Under the pieces are notes generated by a model. The model was not told the DNA's origin, searched no databases, and worked only from the letters and a program-made list of their open reading frames with translations. From Candidatus Zixiibacteriota bacterium (lineage in GTDB: Bacteria; Zixibacteria; MSB-5A5; JAABVY01), in NCBI GenBank assembly GCA_011056555.1, contig DSEQ01000021.1, positions 1-64,000 on the forward strand: a stretch of DNA of 64,000 nucleotides. The letters run 5' to 3'. Shown here piece after piece: positions 12,978 to 58,518 of the stretch (the stretch's first letter is position 1; each line of letters begins with the position of its first letter). Made by a program: the position numbers and the translations under genes.

Positions 12978-13048
12978 CCATTCCGAGAGCTGCCGGCTGT
13001 TCAGTTTTTCCAGCAGATGATCCGGATGCGCATAACCCAGGGCCAGGG

Positions 13049-13435: not shown

Positions 13436-13450
13436 AATTCCTCCTATTGG

Positions 13451-13885: not shown

Positions 13886-14277
13886 GCATTTGTTCTATGC
13901 ATCCTGAAATTGACCGTCAAAAGTGGTCTGTGATTGTCATCATATCCGAGGAACAGGATGTCTCCCTGTGCCCAGATTGCTATGTATCGAGTCGAATTGA
14001 TTGTGTAATTCGCCACGACATGCAGACTGTCCTGGATGTCCTTGGCCAGCGCATATGCATCCCGGTATTTTCCTTTGGCGCCGCGGATTCTGACCTGAAT
14101 GGTGGGCCGCTTGTAAACGAAATTCTCTTCCGGATCCGAGCCTCCGGTGTCATAGATGGCCACACATTCATCCGGACTGGCCGGCATCTCCGAAACAAAC
14201 AGGTTCGTCCTGAATACCAGTCCCAGACTGGAATCAGCACCCAGAATGTCTTTTATGTCATGGCTTGGTGCGTTCAT
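13882..14277 (-). CDS. tail terminator / completion protein (DUF3168-like)
   Basis: 131 aa; position upstream of the major tail protein. Confidence 0.35.
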   Translation of the reverse strand: MNAPSHDIKDILGADSSLGLVFRTNLFVSEMPASPDECVAIYDTGGSDPEENFVYKRPTIQVRIRGAKGKYRDAYALAKDIQDSLHVVANYTINSTRYIAIWAQGDILFLGYDDNHRPLLTVNFRMHRTNA

Positions 14278-14380
14278 ATGCTCACCTCAAAACAAAAAGG
14301 CCGGATCCGGGAGTATGCCCGGCATCCGGCCTTCTGTTCTCCAGAACTTCCGACCTTTGGACTTCAAACAACTATAATTC

Positions 14381-14542
14381 TTATGCCAATTTGATCGGTA
14401 CCGATATCTCCTTTTTGCATTTATCGCATTTGGTCAGCGCTATACCGTTTATTATTCTGACCTTGCGCACTCTAATTATGGTCACACTATTGGAGGCGGT
14501 CTCGATTATCTTTCTGCCGCAATGCTCGCAACGATAAAGCAT
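14381..14542 (-). CDS. small zinc-ribbon protein (53 aa)
   Basis: MLYRCEHCGRK...TKCDKCKK with two CxxC pairs; start sits 1 nt after the stop of the upstream gp10-like gene; below the ORF-track size cut-off. Confidence 0.3.
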   Translation of the reverse strand: MLYRCEHCGRKIIETASNSVTIIRVRKVRIINGIALTKCDKCKKEISVPIKLA

Positions 14543-14543
14543 A

Positions 14544-14909
14544 TCAGACCTTGACCTTGCTTCTTATGGCTTCCAGCACCTCGCCCTGTTTATCCTTCAA
14601 TGCGGTTTCCAGGAACTTCCATTGGCCAATATTGTGGAAGCGGTCTATCTCATGAACAAAAGGCGCATAGGAAGCTGTATATCCGATCTCGGCGCCCGGG
14701 CCTTTCGGCAGATCGATCATCGTATGGTATGCCGAGGCCCTGAGGTTGCCGGTCTTGACCGGAGTCAGCTCCATGGATCTCCGCTGAACAATCAGGGCTG
14801 CCTTTTGCATCCCTGCCCGGGTGCGTCCCCTGATGCCCGATATCTCCCGGTTTAGATTTGCCAGGACCCTGTTAAGGCCCGTGAATGTTACCCGGCTTTT
14901 TACAGCCAT
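14544..14909 (-). CDS. HK97 gp10-like tail component
   Basis: FTGLNRVLANL...TPVKTGNLRAS motif of the HK97 gp10 family. Confidence 0.5.
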   Translation of the reverse strand: MAVKSRVTFTGLNRVLANLNREISGIRGRTRAGMQKAALIVQRRSMELTPVKTGNLRASAYHTMIDLPKGPGAEIGYTASYAPFVHEIDRFHNIGQWKFLETALKDKQGEVLEAIRSKVKV

Positions 14910-41867: not shown

Positions 41868-42086
41868 TCAATCTATAATTTCACCGCTGCTCTTTCGCGC
41901 CGCAGCTTTGGCTTCCTCTATACTCTTGGCGATACCTGAATGCAGCCTGCCCTTATGGTCGCGATAATCCCACTGCACCCTTAGCTCATAGTTGAAAAGT
42001 GCGGAGCGGAATTCCTCATAGGCGAACTGGCCCCGCTCATGCGTGGTTGTGCAGCCGTTTTTATTCAACTTGCTTTGACTCATCAA
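41868..42086 (-). CDS. hypothetical protein
   Basis: 72 aa; 4-nt overlap with the SbcCD-fusion gene. Confidence 0.3.
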   Translation of the reverse strand: MMSQSKLNKNGCTTTHERGQFAYEEFRSALFNYELRVQWDYRDHKGRLHSGIAKSIEEAKAAARKSSGEIID

Positions 42087-45000
42087 TAGACCTCCTTCAA
42101 ATTTCCGCTTGCGGTATCATAGATGATTTTCTGCTCGCACTGGTCGGCCAGTTCTTTGCGATGGGTGACCAGCAGGAGCTTATCCAGGCGGCCCAGCTGC
42201 ATGCGTTTCTGAAGCATGTTAAATAGTGCCGAGGCTCGGAAGTCCCGCAGGGCTCCATCGCATTCATCCACCATGGCGAACTTGGGCTCAAAGCCCGACT
42301 GCTGAGCGCGATAGATTGAGACGGCGGCCTGCATGGCCACAATAAAGGGCACCTTCTGACCGCCCGAGAGGAGCCTGATTGGTCGCTCCCCCTGCTCATC
42401 GATCACAATGATATCAAGCGTCTCAATCTGGCCTTTTCCGGAGGCCTTATCCTTGACCGTGTCAAAACGAATTTGCCAGGATGACCCGAACTCGGAGAGC
42501 AGATCGTTGGCCAGGGATGATATCTGCGGCAGTGCATTTTCCAGAAGCAGGGCAGGAATACCGTTGCGACTGAAAGCAGTCTGCAGCAAAACATAATCGG
42601 AATAGTCGGCCTTCTTGGAAGCGTGCTTCTTCTCAGTTTCCTTAATTCGCTCCTCCAGCTCGAGCAGTTCCTTTATCTTTGCTTCTGCCGCGGCTTTGGC
42701 CTTCTCAGCCTCCAGAATCCGGGTCTCCTGGGATTCAATACGAGACTTTATTATTCTGATATCATGATTGCATTCACGAATTTCCTCCGCGAGATGGATG
42801 TCGATCTGTTTCTCGAGCTCATCACGTTTTGCTCTTAGCCCGCTCATCTGCTGGGAGAATTCCGGAATGAGCTTATCATACTCTCCCTGCTGGTACGCCA
42901 GAGATTCTCGGGCTTCCTTGAGTTGATCGGCCAGCTGTTCGGCTCGGGCCAGGGCTATGTCCAGACTCGATTTGGCAGGGCCCCAATCAGTTTTCCGGGC
43001 CTTCTCTGGAAAGCCTTCATAATCCAGGCGCAGTACCTCTGTTTCCTCTTCCAGCTTACTCAAAGACTTGCGCAGTGAATCGAGTTTATCCTCGTGCTCA
43101 CCCTCCAGGCTCTGTTTCTCTTTGGCCAGGTCCTTCAGATTATCTACCAGGGGCTTTAGGCTTTTGGAAGCATCAACCGCCGAGGAAATGAGCGGGCACT
43201 TGGAGCAGAGGTCGATGACCTCGGCGATCAGTTCATCTGTGAAGGATCTCCATTCCTGGACATCACCGCTGTAGAACTCTTTTGCGTTAAATTGCTGGCA
43301 GGGCACGTTCTCGAGCCTTTCGGCCAGCTCCTCATTCTGTTTGATCTCGGCTTCAGTGCGCTGAATCTGGTCCTCAATGTTTTTCAGATTCGATGCTTGC
43401 AGGCTCTCAACCTGGCGCAGGTCGCGCCGGGCGGCAGAGATTTCAGCTTCCTTCTTTTCGATCCGTGCCTTTAATTCCTGAGCCTCCTTCGAAAGCTTCA
43501 CCATTTCCTCGATCTTATCCCGGCGCTCGATTAAGTCCTTGTCCTTCTGGATGTCAGCATAGAGTCTCCCGATTTTCATCTCCTGCTTGGCCTTCCAGGC
43601 CTGGAATTTGTTTTGAGTTCTGATCTTCCTGGTGGACAGTTCCTCCAGCTGCTGATCGAGGTCGGCAATCTGCTTTTTAACAGATTCCTGAGTTGCGGCC
43701 TTTTTCTCGCGCTCCTTCAATTTAAACTCGAGCTCCTCCAGTTCCGATGTTGCCAGGAACTTATTAGCCTTATGCTCGGCGATAGCCTTCTGCTGTTTCT
43801 CAAGCTCAGCATCAAACTCCGGTATGAACTCCAGGGCCCGCCGATCTTCCGAAAGCTTCGCTTCCGTTAAGCTGATTTCATTCTGGAGGGCCTGGGCGGA
43901 CTCCTTGGCCTTTTCAGCAATCGCCTGATACTCCGTGAAACCCAAAAAGTCGTAGAACATGTCTTTCAGCTCAGCATTGGTCTTGTTAATCAGACCGTTC
44001 GTACCCTGAACCTGGTAGACGCCTTGCTGAAATAATTCGGGCGAGCCGAAGAGCTCCAGCACGACCCGCTTATAGGAAGGTTTTTTGCCATCATTCAAGG
44101 TGGTCCAGTCTTCGCCGTCCAATCGATAAGCGTAATATTCAGCTTTGCCGCGGACCCCATCCACTACCAGAAGGAACATATAATCAATTCCGTCTATGCT
44201 GACCACCAGCTCGCGGCAGGAATCCTCCAGCCTGAAGTGGTCGGAGAGCTTGGCGTTCCAGTTCAGGCCGTCATAGTAAAAGCTGAAGGGATAGGGATGC
44301 AGGTTGTCAAAAGTGGTTGATTTTCCGGCTCCGTTATCTCCGTCGAAGAGAATCATGTCGCTGTTGAATTTTTCAAAGTCGATCTTGATCTCATCAGTCC
44401 AGGTGATCCCTTTGGAACCGCGCAGCCTGAGTGATTTGAGACGGATGGTGCCCCGGGCGGTAAGCCCGGCGTCATCCTCCAGCACCAGCTCGCTCTGTAG
44501 CTTGTGGAGCTTGGCCGGTATGTCTTCCGCCAGATCTGTTTCGGTCGTCTCTGCCCAGGCCTTCAGGCGCTCCAGATTCGTTATCGCTTCGTTGATGACC
44601 TCGCACCTCTGGCGGCTCTGAGGTTTGATGATCTTCTCGAATTTGACCGAATTGGGGTGCAGGTCGTTCCAGCTCAGCCATTTCTTGATATGATCTTCAT
44701 TGACCAGGTCCTTGGCTTCCGGGGGCATGTGCAAGCGGATCCTGGTGTCGGCCTGATTGCAGCCATGGGGATTGAAGTCTGGAAAGCCGGCCGGGCCGCC
44801 GGTCTTTTTGTCCAGAAATCTAAAAGGCTGGTCGTCGCTGTCTTCGGGGTAATAAATGAGATCAAAATCGACCATGGCCGGGAACGGTGTCGGAATCCGC
44901 TCCAGCTGCAGAATCTCATGCCGATTGACTTCGGCATAGAGCACGGATTTCTGCTCCTTCTCACCCCAGTTATGAGGGAAGGGACTGCCCGAATAAAAGA

Positions 45001-45724
45001 TGTTCTCCCCGATCTGCTGCGGCTTATGAATGTGACCGAGGCAGTTTATGACTGCCCCGGCCTCTCGGATGTCGGTGGTAGATATAACAATATCACCACC
45101 AGTCATAACCTGGCCGGTCGGTGTTTCACTGCCATAGACAGTAAAGTGGCCGAGAAGTAAAGGGATGAATTCGGGATGGCGAGTCGCGAACCGTGCCATT
45201 TCGGCTCGGAATCCCAGAAACAGTTCTCGCACCAAACCGGCCGCTTCAACATCAGCCCGATCCGGAGAAAGATCAAGACCTCTGGACTTCGCCCAGGTCA
45301 TAAGCCCGGACTTGGTCACTCCAGGAATAGGAAATACTGCAAGATTTCCCCGCTCTTTCCTTTTTATATCGATGCACATCGAAAAAAGCTCCGGCCTGTC
45401 CAAAACAAATATCTGCCTCTCGGTATGCAGGCTCTTGAAGATATTCAATGAACCCGGCCGATCATGGGAAGGTGTGCCAGGTATCATGTAAACGTCCTGG
45501 AGCATTGCCAGGCGCCGAATATATCTGATCACCATATACAAGGGGCTGTTTTCATTAACCGCAACTTCCCCGTCCCAGATATCGCCGGGAATAACTACAA
45601 TGTCCGGCTCCTTATCTTCTGCGACCTGCAGGGCAAACTCAAAGAACTTTTCGACCTTATCCAGATTATCGCGGCGGGCATGCAGATCGGCAAAGTGGAT
45701 CAGCTTCAATTTATTTTCTGCCAT
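42083..45724 (-). CDS. fused SbcD(Mre11)-SbcC(Rad50)-like nuclease/ATPase
   Basis: N-terminal calcineurin-like phosphoesterase motifs FADLHAR, PGDIWDG, GTPSHD, CLGHIHKP; then Walker A DGDNGAGKST, long coiled coils, signature LSGGQKVP, Walker B MVDECDGAL, H-loop LLLVTHRK. Confidence 0.7.
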   Translation of the reverse strand: MAENKLKLIHFADLHARRDNLDKVEKFFEFALQVAEDKEPDIVVIPGDIWDGEVAVNENSPLYMVIRYIRRLAMLQDVYMIPGTPSHDRPGSLNIFKSLHTERQIFVLDRPELFSMCIDIKRKERGNLAVFPIPGVTKSGLMTWAKSRGLDLSPDRADVEAAGLVRELFLGFRAEMARFATRHPEFIPLLLGHFTVYGSETPTGQVMTGGDIVISTTDIREAGAVINCLGHIHKPQQIGENIFYSGSPFPHNWGEKEQKSVLYAEVNRHEILQLERIPTPFPAMVDFDLIYYPEDSDDQPFRFLDKKTGGPAGFPDFNPHGCNQADTRIRLHMPPEAKDLVNEDHIKKWLSWNDLHPNSVKFEKIIKPQSRQRCEVINEAITNLERLKAWAETTETDLAEDIPAKLHKLQSELVLEDDAGLTARGTIRLKSLRLRGSKGITWTDEIKIDFEKFNSDMILFDGDNGAGKSTTFDNLHPYPFSFYYDGLNWNAKLSDHFRLEDSCRELVVSIDGIDYMFLLVVDGVRGKAEYYAYRLDGEDWTTLNDGKKPSYKRVVLELFGSPELFQQGVYQVQGTNGLINKTNAELKDMFYDFLGFTEYQAIAEKAKESAQALQNEISLTEAKLSEDRRALEFIPEFDAELEKQQKAIAEHKANKFLATSELEELEFKLKEREKKAATQESVKKQIADLDQQLEELSTRKIRTQNKFQAWKAKQEMKIGRLYADIQKDKDLIERRDKIEEMVKLSKEAQELKARIEKKEAEISAARRDLRQVESLQASNLKNIEDQIQRTEAEIKQNEELAERLENVPCQQFNAKEFYSGDVQEWRSFTDELIAEVIDLCSKCPLISSAVDASKSLKPLVDNLKDLAKEKQSLEGEHEDKLDSLRKSLSKLEEETEVLRLDYEGFPEKARKTDWGPAKSSLDIALARAEQLADQLKEARESLAYQQGEYDKLIPEFSQQMSGLRAKRDELEKQIDIHLAEEIRECNHDIRIIKSRIESQETRILEAEKAKAAAEAKIKELLELEERIKETEKKHASKKADYSDYVLLQTAFSRNGIPALLLENALPQISSLANDLLSEFGSSWQIRFDTVKDKASGKGQIETLDIIVIDEQGERPIRLLSGGQKVPFIVAMQAAVSIYRAQQSGFEPKFAMVDECDGALRDFRASALFNMLQKRMQLGRLDKLLLVTHRKELADQCEQKIIYDTASGNLKEVY

Positions 45725-48538: not shown

Positions 48539-48991
48539 ATGCAAATGGCAGAAAATATTAGAAAGCAGTTTCTAAAGGGATTCGGAGCCCGTCTTTTAAA
48601 ACTCTATTCAGAGTCAAATTTTCGATCTTATGCTCACTTTGCAGATAAATTGCGAGAGACCGGCTTTGAAGTAACGAATGATACTGTTTCCAAATGGATG
48701 AGTAAGGAGCCCAGCGAACCAAGAGCATCGGCTATCGTGGCATTATCCAAAGTGTTGAATGTCTCAGCAGATTATCTATTGACTGGAAAAGAACCAGAGT
48801 CCAAAGATGAGAATTTAGCGAAGTTATTGAAGTATTTAAATGATATAAAAAACCAAGCAAACGATTTATCCGATCCCCGGTTACAGCAGTACGCCAGGAG
48901 ATTTGCGGCTCTTCCTGATAATCTGAGGGAAGCAGCGGAGCAGCTTCTTAGGGCTATGGAGGAGGTAGCCAAGAAAAAGCTGGAAGAATAG
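48539..48991 (+). CDS. XRE-family HTH repressor (CI-like)
   Basis: SYAHFADKLRETGFEVTNDTVSKWMSK...LSKVLNVSADYLL; divergent from lytic genes; no S24 peptidase domain. Confidence 0.55.
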   Translation: MQMAENIRKQFLKGFGARLLKLYSESNFRSYAHFADKLRETGFEVTNDTVSKWMSKEPSEPRASAIVALSKVLNVSADYLLTGKEPESKDENLAKLLKYLNDIKNQANDLSDPRLQQYARRFAALPDNLREAAEQLLRAMEEVAKKKLEE

Positions 48992-49174: not shown

Positions 49175-49831
49175 ATGAAAAGAATGTCATTTTTTGCAGT
49201 TCTAACCTTGTTTTTAGCTGTGCCCGTTTGTGGCCAGGATTACGCCGCGGAAGACCATCACTATGGTTTCCATTTTGGAGCGGCTTACTCGAATTTCCAG
49301 GATGACAAGCTGGAAATTGAAATAATAGAACCTGACGATATAATCACTTTCTATCTGGGAGGCAGTTTATTCTTTTACGAAATATTTGCATTGGAGGTAT
49401 CAGTCAGCTATGCCAAAGAATCTGTCTACGAGGTCGCTTCCGGAGCAGCTGTCAATTACGGCGACTTTACTCAATTTCCGATTTCAGTATCGGCAAAATT
49501 GTATAATAACCCGGAGGGAGGGAAAGTCCGGGCTTTCCTGGCGGCTGGCATGAGCTATTATTTTCTGGACTTCGACCAAAGTCAGTATCTCACAAATATA
49601 TATTCTGATGTCTACGGGGTGACCGGAAAAGTAAAAGTTGAAAACGAACTGTCACCTTTTTTTGCAATAGGCATCGATATATTCATCTCCCACAATGCGG
49701 CAATAAGCTCCCAGATCAAATACACTTGGTTAAATCCGAGAGTTACGCTCCCGATCCCAATGATCTGGGATGAGCATCTAAAGGTTAACCCCTTCACTAT
49801 CTCCCTGGGATTTTCTCTTTATGGCGGATAA
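49175..49831 (+). CDS. small outer-membrane beta-barrel protein (Lom/OmpX/OmpW-size)
   Basis: Signal peptide MKRMSFFAVLTLFLAVPVCG; strong SD GGGGAGG; Gly/Tyr-rich alternating strands. Confidence 0.5.
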   Translation: MKRMSFFAVLTLFLAVPVCGQDYAAEDHHYGFHFGAAYSNFQDDKLEIEIIEPDDIITFYLGGSLFFYEIFALEVSVSYAKESVYEVASGAAVNYGDFTQFPISVSAKLYNNPEGGKVRAFLAAGMSYYFLDFDQSQYLTNIYSDVYGVTGKVKVENELSPFFAIGIDIFISHNAAISSQIKYTWLNPRVTLPIPMIWDEHLKVNPFTISLGFSLYGG

Positions 49832-49892
49832 AACAAGGTGTAATTTGCGAGAACAAATGAGCCAACACAAAACTCTTCAGAAAGGAGTGAAT

Positions 49893-50129
49893 ATGGCAGA
49901 TTTCGAAGTTCGGATCCTTAATCACGACCTGGAACCGATTCAAGGCGTCAGAGTCAGACTGGAATTCACACCACTCACAAGAGGTATGACCGGCGAAGAG
50001 TACACTGACTCAGACGGGGTGGCAATGTTCTCCGGTTTTGATGAAGGTGAAGTCAATGTCTATGTGGATCACAGCGATTACGGCAGCTATCGATACGAAG
50101 ACGGAGGCAGCATAACAATCACAAAATGA
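49893..50129 (+). CDS. hypothetical small beta-rich protein
   Basis: ATG at 49893 with AGGAG 7 nt upstream; 78 aa; followed by GGGAGGGAGGC/GCCTCCCTGCC hairpin at about 50195-50232. Confidence 0.35.
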   Translation: MADFEVRILNHDLEPIQGVRVRLEFTPLTRGMTGEEYTDSDGVAMFSGFDEGEVNVYVDHSDYGSYRYEDGGSITITK

Positions 50130-50404: not shown

Positions 50405-51508
50405 ATGAAAAGACTAATTTACATTCTTAGAGACAATAATATTGAATGTCTTCCTAATGAGCGCTTCACACTCGATGTAGAAATGTTTCCAGAATACAGT
50501 GAGGAACCCGTGTTCCCCAAGCAGGTATTATTCGAATCTCCCAAATTGAAAGCCGGAAAGAAATCAGTTCCTGAAGGCGTGCATTCTATGTTTCGATACT
50601 TTCTTGATGGTTCCCAGCGCTCACACCGCGTCATTGATGCCAGTTTCGGGAGTCATTATCTTCCAATATGTGCCGGCCAAATCGGAGTGGCCGTTCTCGA
50701 GAGATTGGATTCTGGCCGCATGGTCCCCCGGAAGGATCTAACCCGAGTCGAAAACATACTTGCAGTTCCCAATGTGATCGGGCAGGATAACGCAAAGGAC
50801 CTTGAGCAGAAAATCAACAAGGAAATGTCGAAAAATGATCACTTCCGCATAGTGCGTTATGATTACCAAACGAAAGATGATAAAGATCCCGCAGACCTCG
50901 GAAGAGCGATGATCATCCATGAAATGCAGATGCTCGAATTGCGCACCATTAGGGACATGATCACTAATCAGGCAATCCAAGAGGATAAGATGTTGGCAAA
51001 GGACGGAGGCCTTCAATATCGCGACACTAAAATCAAAGATCTGAATCTCTCAAAAGATGACCTCGTCCAATTGAGAAATGTGATCGGCTTAGCGAAGACA
51101 TTTAAGCCTAACATGACGGTCGGTCAGGGGCGGGGTCGCCAAGATCTTGGCAATTTGACCAAAGGTCTTGATTGGAAAGAACGAACGACTGTCATAAGTC
51201 CAAATAAAGATGAGATAACAGCTCATGGCTGGTGGTACCTTCGCCTTCGACCGCGTGAGAAAGTCTATAGTCCGCTCCAGGGAATCGCCAAAATAGAAGT
51301 ATTTGCCTCTGATGAAGAAAAAGAGAATGATGGGATTGCTGAAGCACGAGCCGATACCATTTCTTCATACGTCTTGCGAGAGCGCAATGTCACTGCTTAT
51401 AATGCTGATAAACGCTGGGCGAGTCATATTTATCCGATATTTTTAGCCGAGACATATTTGCGTTCTTCTTTTCTCAGTCATGAAAGATTTAAAGCAATGA
51501 TTATTTGA
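50405..51508 (+). CDS. candidate system gene A: putative NurA-like nuclease (tentative)
   Basis: 367 aa; FLDGSQ motif at D68 resembling the NurA DGS hallmark, with downstream acidic residues E99 and D111; gene order (immediately upstream of a HerA-like ATPase) parallels NurA-HerA and effector-HerA systems. Inference only. Confidence 0.35.
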   Translation: MKRLIYILRDNNIECLPNERFTLDVEMFPEYSEEPVFPKQVLFESPKLKAGKKSVPEGVHSMFRYFLDGSQRSHRVIDASFGSHYLPICAGQIGVAVLERLDSGRMVPRKDLTRVENILAVPNVIGQDNAKDLEQKINKEMSKNDHFRIVRYDYQTKDDKDPADLGRAMIIHEMQMLELRTIRDMITNQAIQEDKMLAKDGGLQYRDTKIKDLNLSKDDLVQLRNVIGLAKTFKPNMTVGQGRGRQDLGNLTKGLDWKERTTVISPNKDEITAHGWWYLRLRPREKVYSPLQGIAKIEVFASDEEKENDGIAEARADTISSYVLRERNVTAYNADKRWASHIYPIFLAETYLRSSFLSHERFKAMII

Positions 51509-51521
51509 AAGGGGAAATCCC

Positions 51522-53210
51522 ATGCCCGAAAAAGAATGTATCGGAAAGGTCACCGCGACCGAAAGCAAACCAACCACCTGTACCAGCGTTTACTTCTGGC
51601 TAAGTCCGGATGTTATCATTCGCCCCTTTGACCTCGTGAGGATTGGACACATCTCCGGAGATGGAAACAAAAAAAGCTACTCATATGCAATAGTTCGGGA
51701 ACTCAGCTACATCACAGATAGCGTAGGCCACCTGGCAAATTACGTCTCTTCCGATTTCGGTGATATTAATGCGCATCCGATCAATGAACGGCTTGGAACC
51801 ACGATTGCTGAGGCGGATGTTCTCGGGAACAGCCAGAATATCGAGATGCCGATTCGAGACGGTGCGCGTGTAGAATGGGCGGGACCTGAGGAAATTAGAA
51901 GCGCCCTGGGAGTCGAAAATCTTATAAAGCCTATTCCTGGAGGCTATATTCGTACTTCGAACAAAGAGGAAATCCGCATTGATTTCGAGGCCCGATATCT
52001 CGTTGGCCCCGAGGCAGCTCACATAAACATTTCTGGAATCTCTGGTTTGGCAAGCAAAACATCTTACGCAATGTTTCTTTTAAGCGCATTACAGCAACGT
52101 ATGCAAGACGAAGTAAGCATCATTCTATTCAATGTCAAAGGCCCTGATTTGCTGGCCGTTGATCAGCCGAATGCCTCGATGAGTGAGACACACCAGCAGG
52201 ACTGGAGAAAATGCGGTCTTGAACCGCGGCCACTTGAAAACGTCACCTATCTCTATCCCTATGCCAAGCGTCCGGACCGCTTCTTTACTTCAAGCCATGC
52301 CCCCAATGACGTTATTCAATTTCAAATTGAGCAAAACCAGGCTTTCAATTATTACTACGACGTAGAAACATTTAAGGGTGGTGAAGAAGGCAGTGAGACT
52401 GATGTTGGACGCGATAAGATGTCGCTTCTCTTTTCTGACATTGATGATCCACAATCTACCATGGAAAGCTGTATTCATGAACTCGGAGAGATTCAAGCGG
52501 AGACGTGGGAGAAACTGAGAGAAGAAATCCATGCCAAAACTGAGAAAGGGCAAACCGGACGAAAAGAGATCTCGGTTCAATCCTGGCGCAAATTCAGTCG
52601 GCTAATTCGAACACGAACCACCCATGACATTTTCTCGTCCAATTATTATGGTGAGGACCGGCGCCAAAAGCTCATTGTGGATGCAATTAAGGATTTGAGG
52701 CCCGGAGGAATTCTTGTTGTGGATATCGCTCCCTTACCTGATTATCTTCAATGCTTGGTTTTTGGAGATGTAATCCGAACCGTTTTTGATGCAAAACTCG
52801 ATCTATACGAGAACATTAAAAAAGAAGATTTGGGAAGAGTTGTCATCTTTGCAGATGAATTAAATAAATACGCACCTTCCACATCCGGATCCCGGGATAG
52901 GACTCTCACCCGCTGGCTTCTGGAAATAACTGAACGAGGACGTTCGCTCGGAGTAGTCCTATTTGGTGCAGAGCAGTTCAGAAGTGCTATTCATTCCCGG
53001 GTGCTCGGAAATTGCAGCACGGACGTATTCGGTAGAACAAATCCTGTTGAGCTCTCGAAGGCCCCAGACTACAGGCTATTCTCGCAATCCAATAAAGCTA
53101 CTGTTACAAGACTCAACCAGGGTCAAATGCTGCTTCAGCATTCTGTATTTAATACTGCATTAATAAAGGTTCGTTTCCCATATCCAGCTTATCGGCAGCT
53201 GCAGAGGTAA
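51522..53210 (+). CDS. candidate system gene B: HerA/FtsK-like ATPase with HAS-barrel-like N-terminus and deviant P-loop
   Basis: SD AAAGGGGA; N-terminal IGKVTATES...DLVRIGHISGDG; P-loop-like GISGLASKTS (Ser replaces the second Gly); Walker B VVIFADELNKY; FGAEQF in the ATQRP position. Confidence 0.5.
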   Translation: MPEKECIGKVTATESKPTTCTSVYFWLSPDVIIRPFDLVRIGHISGDGNKKSYSYAIVRELSYITDSVGHLANYVSSDFGDINAHPINERLGTTIAEADVLGNSQNIEMPIRDGARVEWAGPEEIRSALGVENLIKPIPGGYIRTSNKEEIRIDFEARYLVGPEAAHINISGISGLASKTSYAMFLLSALQQRMQDEVSIILFNVKGPDLLAVDQPNASMSETHQQDWRKCGLEPRPLENVTYLYPYAKRPDRFFTSSHAPNDVIQFQIEQNQAFNYYYDVETFKGGEEGSETDVGRDKMSLLFSDIDDPQSTMESCIHELGEIQAETWEKLREEIHAKTEKGQTGRKEISVQSWRKFSRLIRTRTTHDIFSSNYYGEDRRQKLIVDAIKDLRPGGILVVDIAPLPDYLQCLVFGDVIRTVFDAKLDLYENIKKEDLGRVVIFADELNKYAPSTSGSRDRTLTRWLLEITERGRSLGVVLFGAEQFRSAIHSRVLGNCSTDVFGRTNPVELSKAPDYRLFSQSNKATVTRLNQGQMLLQHSVFNTALIKVRFPYPAYRQLQR

Positions 53211-53212
53211 AT

Positions 53213-54781
53213 ATGATGTCCTCAAATTCTGAAAAAATGCCAAAGATAGGGGCATTCGTTCTTGAGACCCTAACCACCGGGATGTACACTAATTCTCTTG
53301 ATACGCTTAGGGAATATATACAGAATTCGTTCGATTCGATCCGCGAATCCGAACGAAGCAACAAATTGACATATGGAGCTGGTCGAATAGATCTCACAAT
53401 AGATGAAAAGAGCCGAATTCTCAAATTGCGTGATAACGGATTGGGCATTCCTAAAAATGAGGTGAAATCCCGGCTTGTTAATATTGGAATGTCTTCAAAG
53501 ACTATCCAGCATTATGCAGGCTTTCGCGGAATAGGGCGACTTGCTGGAATTGCATATTGCGACAGGCTTATTTTCACAACCCAGGCAAAAGATGAAAACG
53601 AATTTTCGCGAGTGGTATTTAACTGCCGAGAACTGCGCAACGCTATGTCTCCAAAATTAAAGCAAATTAGCGAATTGGCTGAGGTGATAAATGAGCATGC
53701 ATCTGTCACTAACGAGAAGACACGCAATAGAGGACATTTCTTTGAAGTTTTAATGGAGGGGATCAATGAGGCCGGACAGTCATTTCTGGACTGGAAGATT
53801 ATCGAAAATTACCTCAGCCAGATAGCTCCGGTCGGTCTTGATACACAATCCTTCTATCACGCAGGTGAAATCATTCAATGGCTGAAAAAGCGAAATATCG
53901 ACGTTCCGACGGTGAGCATAACAATCAATGCAGGATTAATGAAGCGCCAGGTTTTTAAACCGTATCGCAAGCTGACATATACGACCGCACAGGAGAAACA
54001 CAAAATACATTTGAAGAAGATACGTTTTTTCCCCGATGACGCTGGACCTGATTCTCCCTTCTGGGGTTGGTATGCTGAAACCAATTGCCCCGGCACAATT
54101 GGAGACGAGAGGGTTGCAGGAATTCGATTGCGAAAAGATAATATCGGCATTGGTATGGCGGAAAATATGACAAAGATCTTTGCTGAAGCTTCTGAAAGCT
54201 ACGCTCGACTCAATAAGTACTTCATGGGTGAGATCCATATTCAGGACCCGAATATTATACCAAATGCAAGGCGGGATGGATTTGAGGAGGGTCCGGAATG
54301 GTTGAAAGTTCGCCAATCGTTGGTTGAGTTCGCGAAGGAAAGAAGCCGAGAAGCATACCATTTATCACAAGCACGTAATTTGGACATTGAGAGGCTGCTT
54401 GGGGCTGCCAAGAGAGAGAAGGAATCTGCTCAAAAGAGAAAAAAGACTGGGTTGGCCTCCAAGGAGGAAAAAGAAAAGGTTCTTGGCAAGCTCGATAGGC
54501 AAATAGCGAAGCTCGAGGCTGCAAAAAAGTCTGATCGAGATGAGAATGAGCGGAAGCAGATAGATCGCACTTATAAAGAACTTCAAAATACCAGGCAGGC
54601 AATCGAAAACGAAACCCATTATGTGGCTCAGAATCTGAATTCAGCTCTGGATAAAAAGCAGAGGAAAATTATATCTGAAATAATCGGAATTCTTTATGAT
54701 GTGTTGGACGATGGATCATTCGAGAAGGCCCGTGCTGCGATCCTGGCAAAATATCAAATCCCAAACAAGAAGAGAGAGTAA
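53213..54781 (+). CDS. candidate system gene C: GHKL (Bergerat-fold, MORC/Hsp90/MutL-like) ATPase with coiled-coil C-terminus
   Basis: N-box EYIQNSFDS, G1 box LRDNGLGIP, G2 box GFRGIGRLAGIAY; C-terminal K/E-rich coiled coil. Confidence 0.55.
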   Translation: MMSSNSEKMPKIGAFVLETLTTGMYTNSLDTLREYIQNSFDSIRESERSNKLTYGAGRIDLTIDEKSRILKLRDNGLGIPKNEVKSRLVNIGMSSKTIQHYAGFRGIGRLAGIAYCDRLIFTTQAKDENEFSRVVFNCRELRNAMSPKLKQISELAEVINEHASVTNEKTRNRGHFFEVLMEGINEAGQSFLDWKIIENYLSQIAPVGLDTQSFYHAGEIIQWLKKRNIDVPTVSITINAGLMKRQVFKPYRKLTYTTAQEKHKIHLKKIRFFPDDAGPDSPFWGWYAETNCPGTIGDERVAGIRLRKDNIGIGMAENMTKIFAEASESYARLNKYFMGEIHIQDPNIIPNARRDGFEEGPEWLKVRQSLVEFAKERSREAYHLSQARNLDIERLLGAAKREKESAQKRKKTGLASKEEKEKVLGKLDRQIAKLEAAKKSDRDENERKQIDRTYKELQNTRQAIENETHYVAQNLNSALDKKQRKIISEIIGILYDVLDDGSFEKARAAILAKYQIPNKKRE

Positions 54782-56196
54782 TGCGAAATATACTCCTTGC
54801 GGAACCCGACTATAGATCGAAATTTCCACCTCTTGGGTTGATGAGATTATCCACGTATCATAAGAGTGAGGGAGATAATGTTACCTTTGTCCGCGGAAGA
54901 AATCCGGATTTGCGGTCGGTAAATTGGCACCGCATTTATATCTCATCGCTTTACACATGGGAATTGCCGCGCACATTGAAGACGATCAAGTACTATGGCA
55001 CTGCCGTAAATAATCCGAAGGATATCATCGTGGGCGGGACAGCTGTGACTCTTCTTCCACAATACATTCGAAGCAAGACAAATGTAACAGTTATTGAGGG
55101 CCTGCTGGATAGACCAAACATGCTTGGTATAGGATCAAAGGCCATCGCTAAACTCATTCCCGATTATTCTATCATAGAGGCAGTGCCGGATTATGAATAT
55201 TTCCCAGCAGATGCTTATTTTACCAAGATCACCAAAGGCTGTATACGCTCCTGTAAATTTTGCGCTGTGCCCATATTGGAAAGAAAATTCGGGTTCTTAA
55301 AGGATCTAAGAAGACAAATTGAAGATGTCAATGAAAGGCATGGGGAGAAGCAGAATCTTGTCGTGATGGATAATAATATTCTTGGTATTGACAGAATCCA
55401 ATCAATCTTCGATGATATAGCAAAGGTCGGCTTTGCCGCAGGTGCAATGAAAAACGGTAAAAAGCGGTCAGTCGACTTTAATCAGGGATTGGACGCGCGC
55501 CTGATTAATAAGGATCCGTCGCTTGCTGAAGGATTAGCCAGTATATGCACTTCTCCCGTCCGACTGGCGTTCGATTTTGTTGGCATGGAACGGCCATATC
55601 GGCGTGCGATTAAGATTCTCAGGCAGAACGGGTTCAATGAATTCACAAATTATATGCTCTTCAACTTCAAAGATGCCCCAGAAGATCTGTACAGACGAAT
55701 TTGGATAAATGCGGAACTGAATTCCGAATTGGGAATCAGGATCACCGGATTCCCGATGAGATTCATACCCATGGATGATATAAAGAGAAACCATATAGCT
55801 AAAAAATGGAAATGGAGATATTTAAGAGGCATCCAGTGTGTTCTCTTAGCAACCCGGGGGCTTATAAGTCCAAATCGCGAATTCACCCGGGCTGCTTTCG
55901 GGAGTTCTTTCAATGAATTTCTTGAGATTCTTTCCATGCCGGATAGATACATTATTTACAGGGAGGACTATAGGAATAATGGCGCTGATCAATGGCGCCG
56001 GCTCTTCCGGAGGCTCCGCCCACATAAGAGGGAGGAATTTCTGAATCTTCTCGAAGAGTTAAACAAGAGCTATCGCGATAGAAAAAAACGGATTGCAAAA
56101 TTCAATGGGCTATTTGGAAAGCTGCTGGAGCATTACTATCCAAATGGCGAAACGCCCCAGCGAAAGCCTAAACAAGACAGCCATTTCCAAGTTTGA
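54781..56196 (+). CDS. candidate system gene D: B12-binding-domain-type (class B-like) radical SAM enzyme
   Basis: N-terminal ILLAEP...FPPLGLMRLSTY resembling the B12-binding radical SAM N-domain; GCIRSCKFCAVP (CxxxCxxC); VVMDNNILG following; TAATG overlap with gene C. Confidence 0.6.
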   Translation: MRNILLAEPDYRSKFPPLGLMRLSTYHKSEGDNVTFVRGRNPDLRSVNWHRIYISSLYTWELPRTLKTIKYYGTAVNNPKDIIVGGTAVTLLPQYIRSKTNVTVIEGLLDRPNMLGIGSKAIAKLIPDYSIIEAVPDYEYFPADAYFTKITKGCIRSCKFCAVPILERKFGFLKDLRRQIEDVNERHGEKQNLVVMDNNILGIDRIQSIFDDIAKVGFAAGAMKNGKKRSVDFNQGLDARLINKDPSLAEGLASICTSPVRLAFDFVGMERPYRRAIKILRQNGFNEFTNYMLFNFKDAPEDLYRRIWINAELNSELGIRITGFPMRFIPMDDIKRNHIAKKWKWRYLRGIQCVLLATRGLISPNREFTRAAFGSSFNEFLEILSMPDRYIIYREDYRNNGADQWRRLFRRLRPHKREEFLNLLEELNKSYRDRKKRIAKFNGLFGKLLEHYYPNGETPQRKPKQDSHFQV

Positions 56197-56200
56197 TCAG

Positions 56201-56854
56201 ATGCTCTATATTTTTTTGGATGAAAGTGGAAACTTCGATTTTTCAGGGAGAGAGGGTCGGCAGTATTTTATCATTACGGGCCTGTCTGTTTTCCGCCCGT
56301 TTCCCTGCTTTGAGGAGCTTCTTGAATATCGACATGACTTGTGGGAGTCCGGTCAAGAAATAGAATACTTTCATGCAAATAATGATCAGCCTCACGTTAG
56401 AAAAAAAGTGTTTGAAATTATATGCAAACAATTAGGTAAACTCCAGGCGGACTCAATAATCTTAGAAAAACGAAAAACATACCCGCAGCTCCAGAAGGAT
56501 CGCGAGAGATTCTATAAAACATTTCTCGGCATTCTGCTCAAATATATCCTTAAGGGTCATACCTGGCATAATATAAAGGATATAGTAATGATACACGATC
56601 GACTTGCACCAGAAAAGAGAAAGAGGCTCTCGGACGCGATAAAGGATGCCCTCTTTTTTTGGGCGGACGACGTCGACGGCAATTATTATATAAATTTCAT
56701 CCAGTCCAAAGCCAGCTTTCTTTTGCAGATTGTGGATTATATAAACTGGGCTATAGCCCGAAAATGGGAATATGGCGATCAGAGTTTTTATGACCTAATC
56801 CAGCCGTGTATTAAGAGTGAACGTGATATCTTCAACTGGTGGAAGTACAAATAA
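56201..56854 (+). CDS. candidate system gene E: DUF3800 family protein
   Basis: Start at ATG 56201, 4 nt after the gene D stop (ORF track extends upstream via TTG); N-terminal MLYIFLDESGNF matches the DUF3800 hallmark YIDESG. Confidence 0.55.
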   Translation: MLYIFLDESGNFDFSGREGRQYFIITGLSVFRPFPCFEELLEYRHDLWESGQEIEYFHANNDQPHVRKKVFEIICKQLGKLQADSIILEKRKTYPQLQKDRERFYKTFLGILLKYILKGHTWHNIKDIVMIHDRLAPEKRKRLSDAIKDALFFWADDVDGNYYINFIQSKASFLLQIVDYINWAIARKWEYGDQSFYDLIQPCIKSERDIFNWWKYK

Positions 56855-57049: not shown

Positions 57050-58171
57050 ATGGCCCGGCCATACAAACGCGGAAATAAGTGGTATATATACGTCACCCAT
57101 AAGGGTCAGCGCGTCCGAAAGTCTATCGGTACCTCCAAGGCCCTCGCCCAGAAATATCAGAGCATGATTGAAACAGATCTGATGCGGGGAGAATTGAAGC
57201 TGGATGTATCCGATTGCTCAATCGAAAGGCTTTTCACCGATTACCTGGAGTACTCTGCCATCAATCATCGGCCCTCCACCACCAGGCGCTATGAGGGGGC
57301 AATCAGATATTTCCATATATTCCTCGGTCACTTTTATCCCCGGGTAAAACGGGTTGGCCAGCTCAGCCTGAATGTCTTCGAAAAATATAAGCATTTCAGA
57401 CGCACCACCGATCCAAAGTCAATCAATGCTCAGCTCTCCGGGGACATGAGATATCCAGCCAACTGCACCGTCGCGAAAACCAAAACCGTCAATTATGAAA
57501 TCAAAACCCTGAAGTCAGTTTTTGAATTTGGAATCAGGAGAGGCCTGTGCAGCGTAAATCCGGCCAGGGGGGTTTCGCTTCTCAGGATTGACGATGCTAA
57601 GCAGCCGCGTTTTTTGTCCGGAGATGAATGTCAGATTTTACTGGAGAATGCCGGTAGTGAATACCCCATTTATTTCACCTTATTAAATACGGGGCTTCGC
57701 CTGGGGGAGCTTCTGAACTTGCAGTGGAGCGATATCAATTTCTCACGGAAGGTGCTTATGGTGCGGGGCAAGAGCGACTGGAAACCCAAGGCCGGAGAAA
57801 GAGAGATACCACTCAATCAAGGGGTCTTGAATTTGCTTAGAGATATCAAGCCCAAACGGGCCCGGAAGTCCGATTATGTCTTTCAATTCAAGCGCCGGGA
57901 CACGGCCGCTCGGATATTGAGAAAGCGCCTGGCACGCCTCTGCAGAGAGCATGGTCTTGAGGCTTTTAGCCTGCATGATCTCAGGCATACTTTTGCCAGT
58001 CAGCTGGTGATGAACGGGGTCGATCTGGCAACTGTTCAGCAGCTGCTCGGGCATCGGGATATCCAGACCACCATGATCTATGCCCACCTGGCGCCCGACC
58101 ATTTGGCCGGGGCGGTCAGAAAACTCGATTCCATTCTGCCACAAATCTGCCACAAACGGGGTAAGACCTAA
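57050..58171 (+). CDS. int: tyrosine site-specific integrase
   Basis: C-terminal catalytic HDLRHTFAS and TTMIYAHL (Tyr); N-terminal SAM-like arm domain; ends 26 nt from the tRNA 3' end. Confidence 0.8.
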   Translation: MARPYKRGNKWYIYVTHKGQRVRKSIGTSKALAQKYQSMIETDLMRGELKLDVSDCSIERLFTDYLEYSAINHRPSTTRRYEGAIRYFHIFLGHFYPRVKRVGQLSLNVFEKYKHFRRTTDPKSINAQLSGDMRYPANCTVAKTKTVNYEIKTLKSVFEFGIRRGLCSVNPARGVSLLRIDDAKQPRFLSGDECQILLENAGSEYPIYFTLLNTGLRLGELLNLQWSDINFSRKVLMVRGKSDWKPKAGEREIPLNQGVLNLLRDIKPKRARKSDYVFQFKRRDTAARILRKRLARLCREHGLEAFSLHDLRHTFASQLVMNGVDLATVQQLLGHRDIQTTMIYAHLAPDHLAGAVRKLDSILPQICHKRGKT

Positions 58172-58197
58172 ATCTAAGTAATTGTCAAAAAACAAAA

Positions 58198-58271
58198 TAG
58201 CGGTGCAGGGACTTGAACCCCGGACACGCGGATTATGATTCCGCTGCTCTAACCAACTGAGCTACACCGCC
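58198..58271 (-). tRNA. tRNA-Met (anticodon CAT; elongator type, or lysidine tRNA-Ile2)
   Basis: Reverse complement folds as a cloverleaf: 7-bp acceptor stem, D-arm GCTC/GAGC, anticodon stem GCGGA/TCCGC with loop ATCATAA, T-arm CGGGG-TTCAAGT-CCCTG; no encoded CCA. Confidence 0.8.
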
Positions 58272-58518
58272 ATATTAGTCTAAATCCCTCAATTTCTGCC
58301 AGAGAGATTTTACAATCTATTAATTTATCGGGCAAAGTCAAGCAGATTTGAACCCGCCAGATTATATATATTCCTTAGCCTGCGAATTGTTCCCCGGCCG
58401 CCTGAATTCCTTCTCGAACGGCTTCCCCGGGACTGCATAAATAATTAGAATAAAAACATTTAGATACTCATAATAATTCAAATAAAACAAGATTTCGCAT
58501 CGATATCATAATAAGAGC

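Follow-up and report, generated by a model that had tools for sequence, protein, structure and literature searches.

We identified a conserved and apparently undescribed four-gene cassette (genes A-D) in a Candidatus Zixiibacteriota prophage, comprising a putative NurA-family nuclease, a HerA-type ATPase, a GHKL ATPase and a radical SAM enzyme. Judged from sequence, it looks like a new DNA-targeting defence system carried by this Zixibacteria prophage. No description of a NurA-HerA-GHKL-radical SAM system was found in the literature, nor any paper linking GHKL with radical SAM.

The cassette in its prophage context

The window analysed here is a contiguous stretch of 64,000 nucleotides, with the following features.

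1-47 kb, minus strand: tail, tape-measure, major head, portal and large terminase genes
42083-45724: SbcCD-like protein of the same prophage
48539-48991, plus strand: HTH/CI-like repressor (Pfam HTH_3 6e-4, Phage_CI_repr 2e-3, both below cut-offs)
50405-51508, plus strand: gene A, putative NurA-family nuclease with RNase H-like fold, 367 aa (fold match), first gene of the four-gene core
51522-53210, plus strand: gene B, HerA-type hexameric translocase ATPase of the bacterial (Deinococcus) type, 562 aa (7f6d_B match)
53213-54781, plus strand: gene C, GHKL (Bergerat-fold) ATPase, 522 aa (Pfam HATPase_c_3)
54781-56196, plus strand: gene D, radical SAM enzyme, 471 aa, pI 9.8 (CxxxCxxC motif, fold)
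56201-56854, plus strand: gene E, DUF3800 protein, 217 aa from ATG (Pfam DUF3800)
57050-58171, plus strand: tyrosine integrase of the prophage (Pfam Phage_integrase 7e-35)
58197-58272, minus strand: tRNA-Met (CAT) (ARAGORN; Rfam tRNA 65.8 bits)

Genes A-E form a tight array of five plus-strand ORFs (50405-56854). Direct reading of the junctions confirmed the packing described in the original prediction: a 13-nt gap between A and B, a 2-nt gap between B and C, a TAATG overlap of C and D, and a 4-nt gap between D and E. The A-B gap also carries the Shine-Dalgarno-like AAGGGGA. This spacing suggests one operon; promoter and terminator scans of the cassette gave scores no better than those of shuffled sequence. 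The five domain assignments proposed earlier (NurA-like, HerA-like, GHKL, radical SAM with a B12-type N-domain, and DUF3800) all hold by fold, profile or motif.

The cassette occupies the cargo slot on the lysogeny side of a real prophage, as had been proposed, lying in the AT-rich stretch between the CI-like repressor and the integrase/tRNA-Met. The GC content of 48-57 kb is 0.41-0.46, compared with 0.50-0.59 in the prophage body (1-31 kb) and 0.45-0.55 in the right flank, which bears out the claim that the operon is AT-richer than both. The tRNA-Met, whose 3' end points toward the integrase, is the likely integration target of the prophage; no second copy of this 3' end occurs within the window. 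On its left, the plus-strand lysogeny/cargo block begins with the CI-like repressor.

Genes A and B resemble a Deinococcus-type NurA-HerA pair

Gene A has no match in Pfam (E <= 0.01), PADLOC, NCBIfam or PHROG, the curated NurA model included. Structure prediction followed by a fold search, the check suggested originally for this gene, recovered a NurA fold. The best PDB match of the AF2 model (mean pLDDT 84) in Foldseek is Deinococcus radiodurans NurA (7f6d_G, E 6e-12, TM 0.55-0.60), followed by TM1739 (1zup, E 7e-10), with further matches to archaeal NurA (9x1n, 3e-4) and Argonaute PIWI. The family profile also matches NurA (7f6d_H, E 0.005), at about 16% identity between A and the D. radiodurans protein. 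Five residues are invariant in 35 homologs: D68 (in FLDGS), E178, D200, D335 and H341. In the model, D68 starts a long β-strand (63-81), E178 lies in a helix, and D200 ends a strand. On the modelled structure, gene A has the NurA fold and is a putative nuclease.

Gene B matches D. radiodurans HerA (7f6d_B) by phmmer (E 3.6e-36) and by profile (E 4.5e-58), the latter in two stretches (profile positions 4-243 and 381-543) that cover the N-terminal barrel region and the RecA-like domain. Its deviant Walker A, NISGISGLASKTSY (K179/T180), is of the same SGxATKTS type as in D. radiodurans HerA, where the corresponding residues are K175/T176 (PMC9960219). K179, T180 and the Walker B DELNKYAP (D445/E446) are invariant and align with D. 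radiodurans HerA. The two proteins are identical in Walker A type and Walker B and match over their full length, and the gene order, nurA then herA, is also the same in D. radiodurans (PDB 7F6D). By comparison, the defence HerAs in the PDB (8xau, 9c1m, 8ziq) match B at 5e-5 or weaker. The profile matches and the predicted model show A and B to be a putative bacterial NurA-HerA pair of the Deinococcus type, and the A-B pairing is kept in every complete locus. At one locus (L031) a NurA-HerA pair occurs without C and D. The D. radiodurans pair is described as a two-gene repair operon, whereas here the pair is tied to GHKL and radical SAM and is mobile.

The GHKL ATPase

Gene C matches Pfam HATPase_c_3 (E 9e-9, 35.9 bits against a cut-off of 25), with weak NCBIfam matches to HSP90, MutL and HtpG. 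Its profile finds the N-domains of HtpG, TRAP1 and Hsp90 at 1e-9, and by sequence it is nearest to HSP90/HtpG N-domains. The residues E34, N38 and D41 and the motifs D74-N-G-x-G78 and G103-F-R-G-x-G108 are invariant in 20 homologs, and K249 is nearly so. With its ATP-binding motifs intact, the protein looks catalytically competent. A middle domain is followed by a Lys/Glu-rich C-terminus that is probably a coiled-coil. A long, probably coiled-coil C-terminus, co-encoded nucleases and mobility are also features of the MORC/MutL-type GHKL proteins in restriction-modification-like operons (PMC2292703), although C differs from these in its closeness to HSP90/HtpG.

The radical SAM enzyme and its family

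Gene D is a member of the radical SAM superfamily. It contains an N-terminal Rossmann/B12-binding-like domain, a radical SAM core and a basic helical C-terminal domain, and the three cysteines of its cluster motif, C154-x3-C158-x2-C161, are invariant. The Pfam Radical_SAM score of 22.0 bits is below the cut-off of 29.5. Many radical SAM enzymes are matched by fold, the nearest being RimO, MiaB, MtaB, CysS, TsrM and OxsB. The order of domains, from Rossmann/B12-like N-domain to radical SAM core, is the same in MiaB/RimO/MtaB and in the class B methylases TsrM, CysS and OxsB. MiaB and MtaB act on nucleic acid. The protein is strongly basic (pI 9.8), and both flanking domains have a pI of at least 10.

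Gene D does not appear to be a methylthiotransferase of the MiaB/RimO type. Such enzymes have an auxiliary [4Fe-4S] cluster on three N-domain cysteines and a TRAM domain. The N-domain of D lacks these cysteines (there is none in residues 1-125), and its NCBIfam RimO/MiaB scores are 18-20 bits against cut-offs of 251-357. Viperins are radical SAM enzymes with antiviral chemistry, and an analogy to them had been drawn for gene D. This analogy fails: the nearest folds are those listed above, and searches of PADLOC, NCBIfam, PDB sequences and folds recovered no viperin.

Gene D belongs to a large, distinct and modular family (about 2,300 clusters at 50% identity) with the radical SAM gene at its hub. 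Its partners include GHKL ATPases, DpdB/DndB-like and ParB-like proteins, a DpdE/ZorD-like SNF2 helicase (3.5e-33 / 6e-40), and PIN or NurA nucleases. D homologs adjoin DndB (DndB-family PF14072, Pfam 3.4e-8) and a DpdB-like DGQHR protein (PADLOC DpdB 1.5e-17), and one protein (P0370) is a natural DGQHR-radical SAM fusion. The order ParB-SNF2-ParB-radical SAM-GHKL is found in about 24 of 80 metagenomic loci, whereas GHKL-radical SAM pairs without a recognisable nuclease occur in about 16 of the 80 and at two further loci (L034, L035). There are also two-module layouts, in which PIN_8 and a first GHKL gene stand with DndB, radical SAM and a second GHKL gene, or NurA-HerA-GHKL1 is followed by radical SAM and GHKL2. 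Because the family is coupled to DpdB/DndB-like, ParB-like, SNF2 and PIN proteins, it may act in DNA modification rather than make a small-molecule product.

Gene D has at least 513 viral matches, and 70 of the best 80 are stand-alone short homologs. Where annotated, these lie in phage replication or DNA-modification modules, beside DNA methyltransferases and a PAPS reductase, an arrangement typical of orphan genes for protective modification. In Marinitoga camini virus 1, a D homolog is independently paired with NurA-HerA.

Conservation and spread of A-B-C-D

The original prediction called for a test of whether the five-gene order is conserved in unrelated genomes. Of 29 genomic loci (drawn from one-genome-per-species contigs), 21 keep A-B-C-D collinear, across about nine phyla; DUF3800 as the fifth gene was found at no locus of this set. 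Among the hosts are Desulfobacterota, Verrucomicrobia, Bacillota, Chloroflexota, Alphaproteobacteria, Ignavibacteria, Armatimonadota, Hydrogenedentota and Planctomycetota. The order also recurs in loci from an exact-protein look-up and on 4 IMG/VR viral contigs. Pairwise comparison of the identity matrices of A, B, C and D gave Spearman coefficients of 0.84-0.96 (19 loci), showing that the four genes co-evolve and are inherited together across phyla.

Most A-D loci are in chromosomal or plasmid settings with no phage genes nearby. Elsewhere, A-D adjoins integrases, toxin-antitoxin pairs, transposases and OLD/AriA/AbiL-like ATPases, and relatives are carried on the conjugative plasmids pNL1 and pR132505; the neighbourhoods (±3 genes) are mixed, with many housekeeping genes.

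Comparison with known systems

In agreement with the earlier expectation that no complete known system would be detected, PADLOC-DB 2.0 (2023) returns no model for A, C or D, gives weak, generic P-loop matches for B, and matches E to a single retron type VII model. None of genes A-E has a dedicated family in NCBIfam (June 2026).

The comparison with Sir2-HerA and DUF4297-HerA (Gao_Her) drawn originally was apt in that a HerA-type hexameric ATPase directly follows an effector gene in all of them, and by analogy A and B would be expected to form an ATPase-effector supercomplex on invader DNA. Pairings of HerA with an effector are established as defence systems (PMC11472057, PMC11291478). The cassette is not one of these two, however, as it encodes neither Sir2 nor DUF4297 and B matches the PADLOC HerA models at 4e-4 to 6e-3. 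Its effector is instead NurA, and two extra conserved genes, GHKL and radical SAM, are present. Assignment to MADS, for which mad6, mad7 and mad8 are mandatory (bioRxiv 10.1101/2023.03.30.534895), was also rejected: the mad8 match to B is weak (3e-6) and no other mad model matched.

The sister systems of gene D resemble the Dpd (7-deazaguanine) system, with DpdB-like and DpdE/ZorD-like SNF2 proteins beside a presumed DNA-modifying enzyme. They share with Dpd a common logic of a DNA "writer", a ParB-superfamily partner, helicases and nucleases, but lack DpdA (tRNA-guanine transglycosylase-like) and the preQ0 pathway and have a radical SAM enzyme in the writer position. In the window, the DpdB-like and SNF2 components are both missing from the cassette, and no Dpd model matches any protein of the window. 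A likeness to Dnd/Ssp is seen in the DndB-family proteins (PF14072) adjacent or fused to D-type enzymes and in the modular make-up. In Dnd/Ssp systems a modification module is joined by restriction modules that can be exchanged, some of which include HerA/FtsK ATPases (PMC10853773). Conversely, homologs of DndA/C/D/E or SspA-D are absent, and the predicted radical SAM chemistry differs.

Proposed function and alternatives

We estimate about an even chance that A-D is a mobile, horizontally spread DNA-acting system, most likely a restriction-modification-like defence against phages or plasmids. The radical SAM enzyme would place a covalent mark on resident DNA through radical chemistry, for example by methylating or thiomethylating an unactivated carbon. 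Like MutL or MORC, the GHKL ATPase may clamp DNA in an ATP-driven way or act as a licensing factor, and NurA-HerA, once licensed by it, would thread and degrade unmarked DNA such as incoming phage DNA ends. A-D would be expressed from the lysogeny side of the prophage. Several observations weigh against this reading: the mixed gene neighbourhoods with their many housekeeping genes, the repair role ascribed to the characterised relative of A-B in D. radiodurans (PMC9960219), the NurA-HerA pair without C and D at L031, and the Val at position 102 of the window's D, where 89% of the family have Cys. Since sister systems pair D with DpdB/DndB-like, ParB-like, SNF2 or PIN proteins, NurA-HerA may be just one of several exchangeable restriction arms that serve a shared radical SAM writer.

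Less probably, though still worth serious consideration, the cassette is a defence without self-marking. GHKL and radical SAM would then form a sensor/effector pair and NurA-HerA a second, end-dependent effector, with D either damaging or modifying invader DNA or making an antiviral or signalling nucleotide in viperin fashion. The viperins are a precedent for antiviral radical SAM chemistry, the GHKL-radical SAM pairs that occur without a nuclease fit such a reading, and so do the HerA-effector systems already known as defences. However, D has no similarity to viperins, and its recurrent partners (DndB/DpdB, ParB-like, DpdE-like SNF2), with one fusion, are tied to DNA modification. The orphan D copies in phage modules also suit a protective mark better than a toxin.

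A mobile accessory for DNA repair or recombination is improbable. Here NurA-HerA would resect ends with help from a MutL-like GHKL, and a DNA lesion would be reversed directly by the radical SAM enzyme, as it is by spore photoproduct lyase, a radical SAM DNA repair enzyme that provides the precedent. D. radiodurans NurA-HerA is a hexameric DNA translocase with a nuclease cap that degrades DNA from its ends. It is described as a DNA repair/end-resection complex (PMC9960219), and its HerA is the closest match of B; the same prophage also carries the SbcCD-like protein. The position in the repressor-integrase cargo slot, in lysogeny orientation and with distinct GC content, argues against a repair role, as do the patchy distribution across phyla and the integrase, toxin-antitoxin and transposase neighbours. 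The nuclease arm is swappable (PIN_8), the partners include DpdB, DndB and SNF2, and spore photoproduct lyase is absent from the top fold matches of D.

It is similarly doubtful that the module benefits the phage, with D shielding prophage DNA from host restriction and NurA-HerA-GHKL breaking down the DNA of the host or of competitors in lytic growth or on superinfection. Phage genomes commonly carry short D homologs beside DNA methyltransferases, and the cassette on viral contigs and the D homolog with NurA-HerA in Marinitoga camini virus 1 are compatible with this role. On the other hand, the predominance of loci away from phage genes speaks against it, and in the window the cassette lies on the lysogeny strand, outside the lytic operons. 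A prophage that excludes superinfecting phages is, in effect, still defending its host.

The DUF3800 gene

Gene E matches Pfam DUF3800 (PF12686) at 1.5e-11 (45.6 bits against a cut-off of 21); the ORF begins at a TTG (56093) in the mechanical list. Its one PADLOC match is DUF3800_VII, the retron type VII effector model (3e-9). Membership of a retron type VII was rejected, as 48-58 kb contains no reverse transcriptase ORF and Rfam detected no ncRNA: no DUF3800 RNA motif was found near E, and nothing besides the tRNA. Gene E is probably co-transcribed with A-D here, given the 4-nt gap. An obligate five-component system that includes DUF3800 is very improbable: the short D-E gap on one strand and the effector role of the DUF3800 domain in type VII retrons (PADLOC model name; PMC8632793) are in its favour, but the gene follows A-D at none of the 29 genomic loci, at no viral or metagenomic cassette locus and in none of the closest relatives. 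Because DUF3800 accompanies A-D nowhere else, the conserved system is A-B-C-D rather than five genes, and gene E is a local passenger outside it. In other lineages the slot after D varies: it may be empty, contain another GHKL paralog or a "459-aa" protein, or carry unrelated genes. Relatives of E are found in unrelated contexts, adjoining a HipA toxin-antitoxin pair or an IS240 transposase.

A conserved four-gene cassette in the prophage

Four adjacent genes, A to D, encode a NurA-like nuclease, a HerA-type ATPase, a GHKL ATPase and a radical SAM enzyme, and they very probably form a conserved, mobile, DNA-targeting conflict system that excludes the neighboring DUF3800 gene E. ORF coordinates and direct reading of the sequence agreed with the five plus-strand genes and the tight packing of the original prediction, with gaps of 13 nt between A and B (containing AAGGGGA), 2 nt between B and C, and 4 nt between D and E, and a TAATG overlap between C and D.

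Features of the cassette and its flanks
48539-48991, CI/HTH repressor (weak Pfam match)
50405-51508, plus strand, gene A, 367 aa
51522-53210, plus strand, gene B, 562 aa
53213-54781, plus strand, gene C, 522 aa
54781-56196, plus strand, gene D, 471 aa
56201-56854, plus strand, gene E, 217 aa counted from ATG
57050-58171, tyrosine integrase (Pfam match)
58197-58272, tRNA-Met

The prophage is genuine, with minus-strand genes for tail, tape-measure, major head, portal, and large terminase proteins, and the cassette block is AT-richer, as had been claimed (GC 0.41-0.46 vs 0.50-0.59 for the left 31 kb). The cassette has the same orientation as the repressor and integrase, i.e., that of the genes expressed in a lysogen. 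Promoter and terminator scans did not rise above shuffled-sequence expectation, an alignment of seven regions upstream of gene A contained no conserved regulatory element or ncRNA, and an Rfam scan matched only the tRNA, with no DUF3800 RNA motif.

Genes A to C: a NurA-HerA pair and a GHKL ATPase

Gene A had no match in Pfam, PADLOC, NCBIfam, or PHROG; its product also occurs, with 100% identity, in a MAG of candidate division Zixibacteria. The AlphaFold model, generated with 35 homologs as input (pLDDT 84), best matched Deinococcus radiodurans NurA (7f6d_G, E 6e-12) and T. maritima TM1739 in the PDB, followed by archaeal NurA and then Argonaute PIWI domains. D. radiodurans NurA was also reached from sequence by the gene A family profile (E 0.005). 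Gene B matched D. radiodurans HerA in both a single-sequence search (3.6e-36) and a profile search (4.5e-58). The two proteins have in common an unusual Walker A, SGxA[ST]KTS, and the Walker B DELNKYAP, the residues of which are catalytic in the Deinococcus protein (PMC9960219). From these matches and the common Walker motifs, A and B constitute a bacterial, Deinococcus-type NurA-HerA pair, and the NurA-like and HerA-like calls made earlier are upheld by the fold match and the HerA match, respectively. The Deinococcus complex degrades DNA from its ends in vitro (PMC9960219).

The assignment of gene C as a GHKL ATPase also stands, as it passed the Pfam HATPase_c_3 threshold. Catalytic motifs are intact, among them the N-box, G1, and G2 motifs of gene C, which are invariant across 20 homologs; in gene A, residues D68 (in FLDGS), E178, D200, D335, and H341 are invariant. 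By sequence, gene C is nearest to the N-domains of HSP90, HtpG, and MutL, and its C-terminal end is rich in Lys and Glu. Its closest paralog partners a PIN_8 nuclease in plasmid systems.

Synteny supports four genes and excludes the fifth

A scan with the gene A profile, using one genome per species, yielded 29 loci. A-B-C-D are collinear at 21 of them; the other eight comprise three cut by a contig end, one disrupted, three A+D variants, and one with A+B only. Hosts include Desulfobacterota, Verrucomicrobia, Bacillota, Chloroflexota, Ignavibacteria, Armatimonadota, Hydrogenedentota, Planctomycetota, and Alphaproteobacteria such as the isolate Azospirillum sp. TSO22-1, which together with N. 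aromaticivorans DSM 12444 (pNL1) is a cultured carrier of sister or variant systems. The Azospirillum variant has the arrangement NurA-HerA-GHKL1-radical SAM-GHKL2. Exact-protein look-ups also placed A-D in Geobacter, Anaerolineaceae, and Pseudodesulfovibrio, where the neighbors are integrases, a PemK/CopG toxin-antitoxin pair, and an AAA_15-DUF4435 gene. The cassette is mobile, with divergent versions on four IMG/VR viral contigs, and its genes are co-inherited: pairwise identity matrices correlate across 19 loci (Spearman 0.84-0.96), with D the least coupled. The defence-island signal was mixed in a crude ±3-gene neighborhood count, which carries no enrichment statistic.

The proposed five-gene unit is contradicted by this synteny, since DUF3800 occurs at none of the A-D loci, whether among the 29 genomic loci, the look-ups, or the viral contigs. 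The slot 3' of D is elsewhere empty or occupied by unrelated genes, by the gene for a 459-aa protein that recurs among loci, or, in Alphaproteobacteria, by a second GHKL paralog. Gene E does have the predicted clear Pfam match to DUF3800, but few homologs (44); two that we inspected adjoin a HipA module and an IS240 transposase, respectively. Judged by gene order, E is a neighboring passenger, and DUF3800 genes may habitually ride downstream in varied small operons. At two E relatives (L126, 5694-6625; L127, 6159-7666), a different unannotated gene, of 91 aa and 279 aa, lies 2-9 nt upstream.

Two cassette loci have further features. On the Armatimonadota chromosome OY781964.1 (L026, about 12990-14700), the GHKL gene is split by a ~1.7 kb insertion whose 506-aa ORF, on the minus strand, may encode a transposase. 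In a Geobacter MAG (L001, 14969-16457), two overlapping genes of 263 and 238 aa lie directly 3' of A-D and may be a toxin-antitoxin pair, because the first weakly matches the SocA/Panacea antitoxin domain (E 0.003).

Gene D is a radical SAM enzyme

Gene D falls below the Pfam thresholds for both Radical_SAM and B12-binding and matches phrog_9298 (7e-39). The CxxxCxxC motif is intact, with C154, C158, and C161 invariant, as is C353. The predicted model (pLDDT 80) is moderately similar to OxsB, MtaB, MiaB, RimO, CysS, MgmA, TsrM, and Elp3, and the protein is strongly basic (pI 9.8). At residue 102, D carries Val in place of the Cys found in 89% of aligned family members, and it retains Cys256 (present in 87%) and the invariant Cys353, a pattern that may bear on a possible second cluster or catalytic cysteine pair. 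The N-domain cysteines of methylthiotransferases are absent, and D was placed neither in that group nor with viperin. The analogy to viperins drawn in the original prediction was not borne out, with no viperin-like similarity in PADLOC, NCBIfam, or the fold matches. A role in maturing RiPPs or peptides, of the kind known from the HXS system (PMC13128918), was also rejected, since neither a conserved small ORF nor a transporter is present and the partner proteins are DNA enzymes.

Relatives of D in sister systems and phages

The D family is much larger than the A family, with at least 3,796 matches for D vs 464 for A in a word-index search. When the D profile was searched exhaustively, 2,292 clusters (50% identity) were recovered, 360 of them with E <= 1e-30. 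We classified 80 metagenomic D loci by tblastn.

Gene arrangements at 80 metagenomic D loci (approximate counts)
ParB-like - (139 aa) - SNF2 - ParB-like - (DndB-like) - radical SAM - (GHKL or 459 aa), ~24/80
Radical SAM + GHKL pairs, ~16/80
DndB-like + radical SAM, ~8/80
NurA-HerA(-GHKL) with radical SAM, both orders occurring, ~8/80
Radical SAM alone, mostly on short contigs, ~24/80

The partners of D are DNA-centered. The conjugative plasmids pNL1 of N. aromaticivorans (L037, NC_009426.1, 3081-13483) and pR132505 of R. leguminosarum (L038, NC_012854.1, 2936-14725) carry a PIN_8 nuclease with GHKL1, and a DGQHR protein with the radical SAM enzyme and GHKL2. The Rhizobium plasmid additionally has two ParB-like genes, a 139-aa gene, and an SNF2 helicase. 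The DGQHR protein of these sister systems matches Pfam DndB (3.4e-8) and PADLOC DpdB (1.5e-17), and the SNF2 helicase matches ZorD (6e-40) and DpdE (3.5e-33). The metagenomic protein P0370 (791 aa) is a natural fusion in which a DGQHR/DndB-like domain precedes the radical SAM enzyme; this domain is 27% identical to the DGQHR protein of Rhizobium (E 9e-27). Apart from this fusion, the extensions of D homologs of 680-820 aa matched no Pfam domain or partner protein. Helical C-terminal extensions of 200-350 aa occur in members of ~800-825 aa (P0322, P0323, P0329, P0331, and P0342) and ~680 aa (P0325, P0336, P0337, P0343, and P0345); other members, of 620-660 aa, have a ~150-aa insertion near residue 222.

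Relatives of D are also found on at least 513 viral contigs, and 70 of the best 80 are stand-alone short forms (~230-300 aa). In annotated phages, these lie amid replication and DNA-modification genes, adjoining DNA methyltransferases and PAPS reductase. In Marinitoga camini virus 1, a temperate Thermotogae virus (L039, KP836355.1, 6001-9827), a 360-aa D homolog (31% identity) is convergent with genes annotated as HerA (31% to B, E 2e-74) and NurA (24% to A, E 8e-15).

Possible mechanism and alternatives

We infer that A-D resembles a restriction-modification system, and we rate it as a candidate HerA-based defence of that kind. Tentatively, D, a basic enzyme with relatives adjacent or fused to DpdB/DndB-type proteins, would mark resident DNA; C would license or recruit the nuclease; and NurA-HerA would thread unmarked DNA and degrade it from the ends, like the Deinococcus complex in vitro. 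The specific mechanism is the less secure part of this account, and the overall explanation, conflict system and mechanism together, we consider finely balanced. Under this scheme, the orphan D copies in phages would be protective mimics, comparable to orphan methyltransferases. Rival explanations for the same four genes are a sensor/effector system that dispenses with self-marking, a repair module, and a module of benefit to the phage. A broader and more doubtful proposal is that the D family uses radical chemistry to write a previously unknown covalent mark on DNA, the self label of a modular restriction superfamily with NurA-HerA (in the window), PIN_8-GHKL, and ParB/SNF2 modules as exchangeable arms, and that phage copies counterfeit the mark.

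The cassette did not group with Sir2-HerA/DUF4297-HerA, Dpd, Dnd, or retron type VII, and its sole link to MADS was a weak mad8 P-loop match. PADLOC-DB 2.0 (2023) lacks models for A, C, and D and for the paralogs of these genes on the plasmids, and NCBIfam (June 2026) has no specific family for the cassette proteins. In the literature, mainly open-access full text, so that a prior description is possible, we found no system joining radical SAM with NurA, HerA, GHKL, MORC, DGQHR/DndB, ParB, SNF2, or DUF3800.

To our knowledge, direct action on DNA by radical SAM enzymes is limited to two cases: spore photoproduct lyase, and an isomerase that takes part in the hypermodification of thymidine in phages. 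For this reason, a radical SAM writer of self versus non-self would be new DNA chemistry, and the DNA-mark reading would be categorically new; such a writer might also serve as an epigenetic tool. If A-D protects against phages, it would add a widespread system (about nine phyla, prophages, and plasmids) and put the bacterial NurA-HerA complex, described for "repair", in the new role of a restriction effector. In the comparative data, several types of DNA-centered operon, with DpdB/DndB, ParB, SNF2, and GHKL partners, have a single radical SAM family as their common core.

Other features of the prophage

A search for attL within the window gave neither a further copy of the tRNA-Met 3' end nor any convincing long direct repeat that would place the left prophage boundary. 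Between the repressor and the cassette, a plus-strand gene at 49175-49831 encodes a signal-peptide-bearing outer-membrane beta-barrel of the OmpW family (Pfam OmpW, 2.6e-8), and overlapping it at 49821-50129 (plus strand) is a gene for a 102-aa Ig-like/CarboxypepD_reg-like protein (weak matches). These cargo genes may function in lysogenic conversion or surface exclusion. A 1213-aa prophage protein (42083-45724, minus strand) has PHROG matches to SbcD-like (residues 2-318) and SbcC-like (360-1201) proteins and appears to be an SbcCD fusion.
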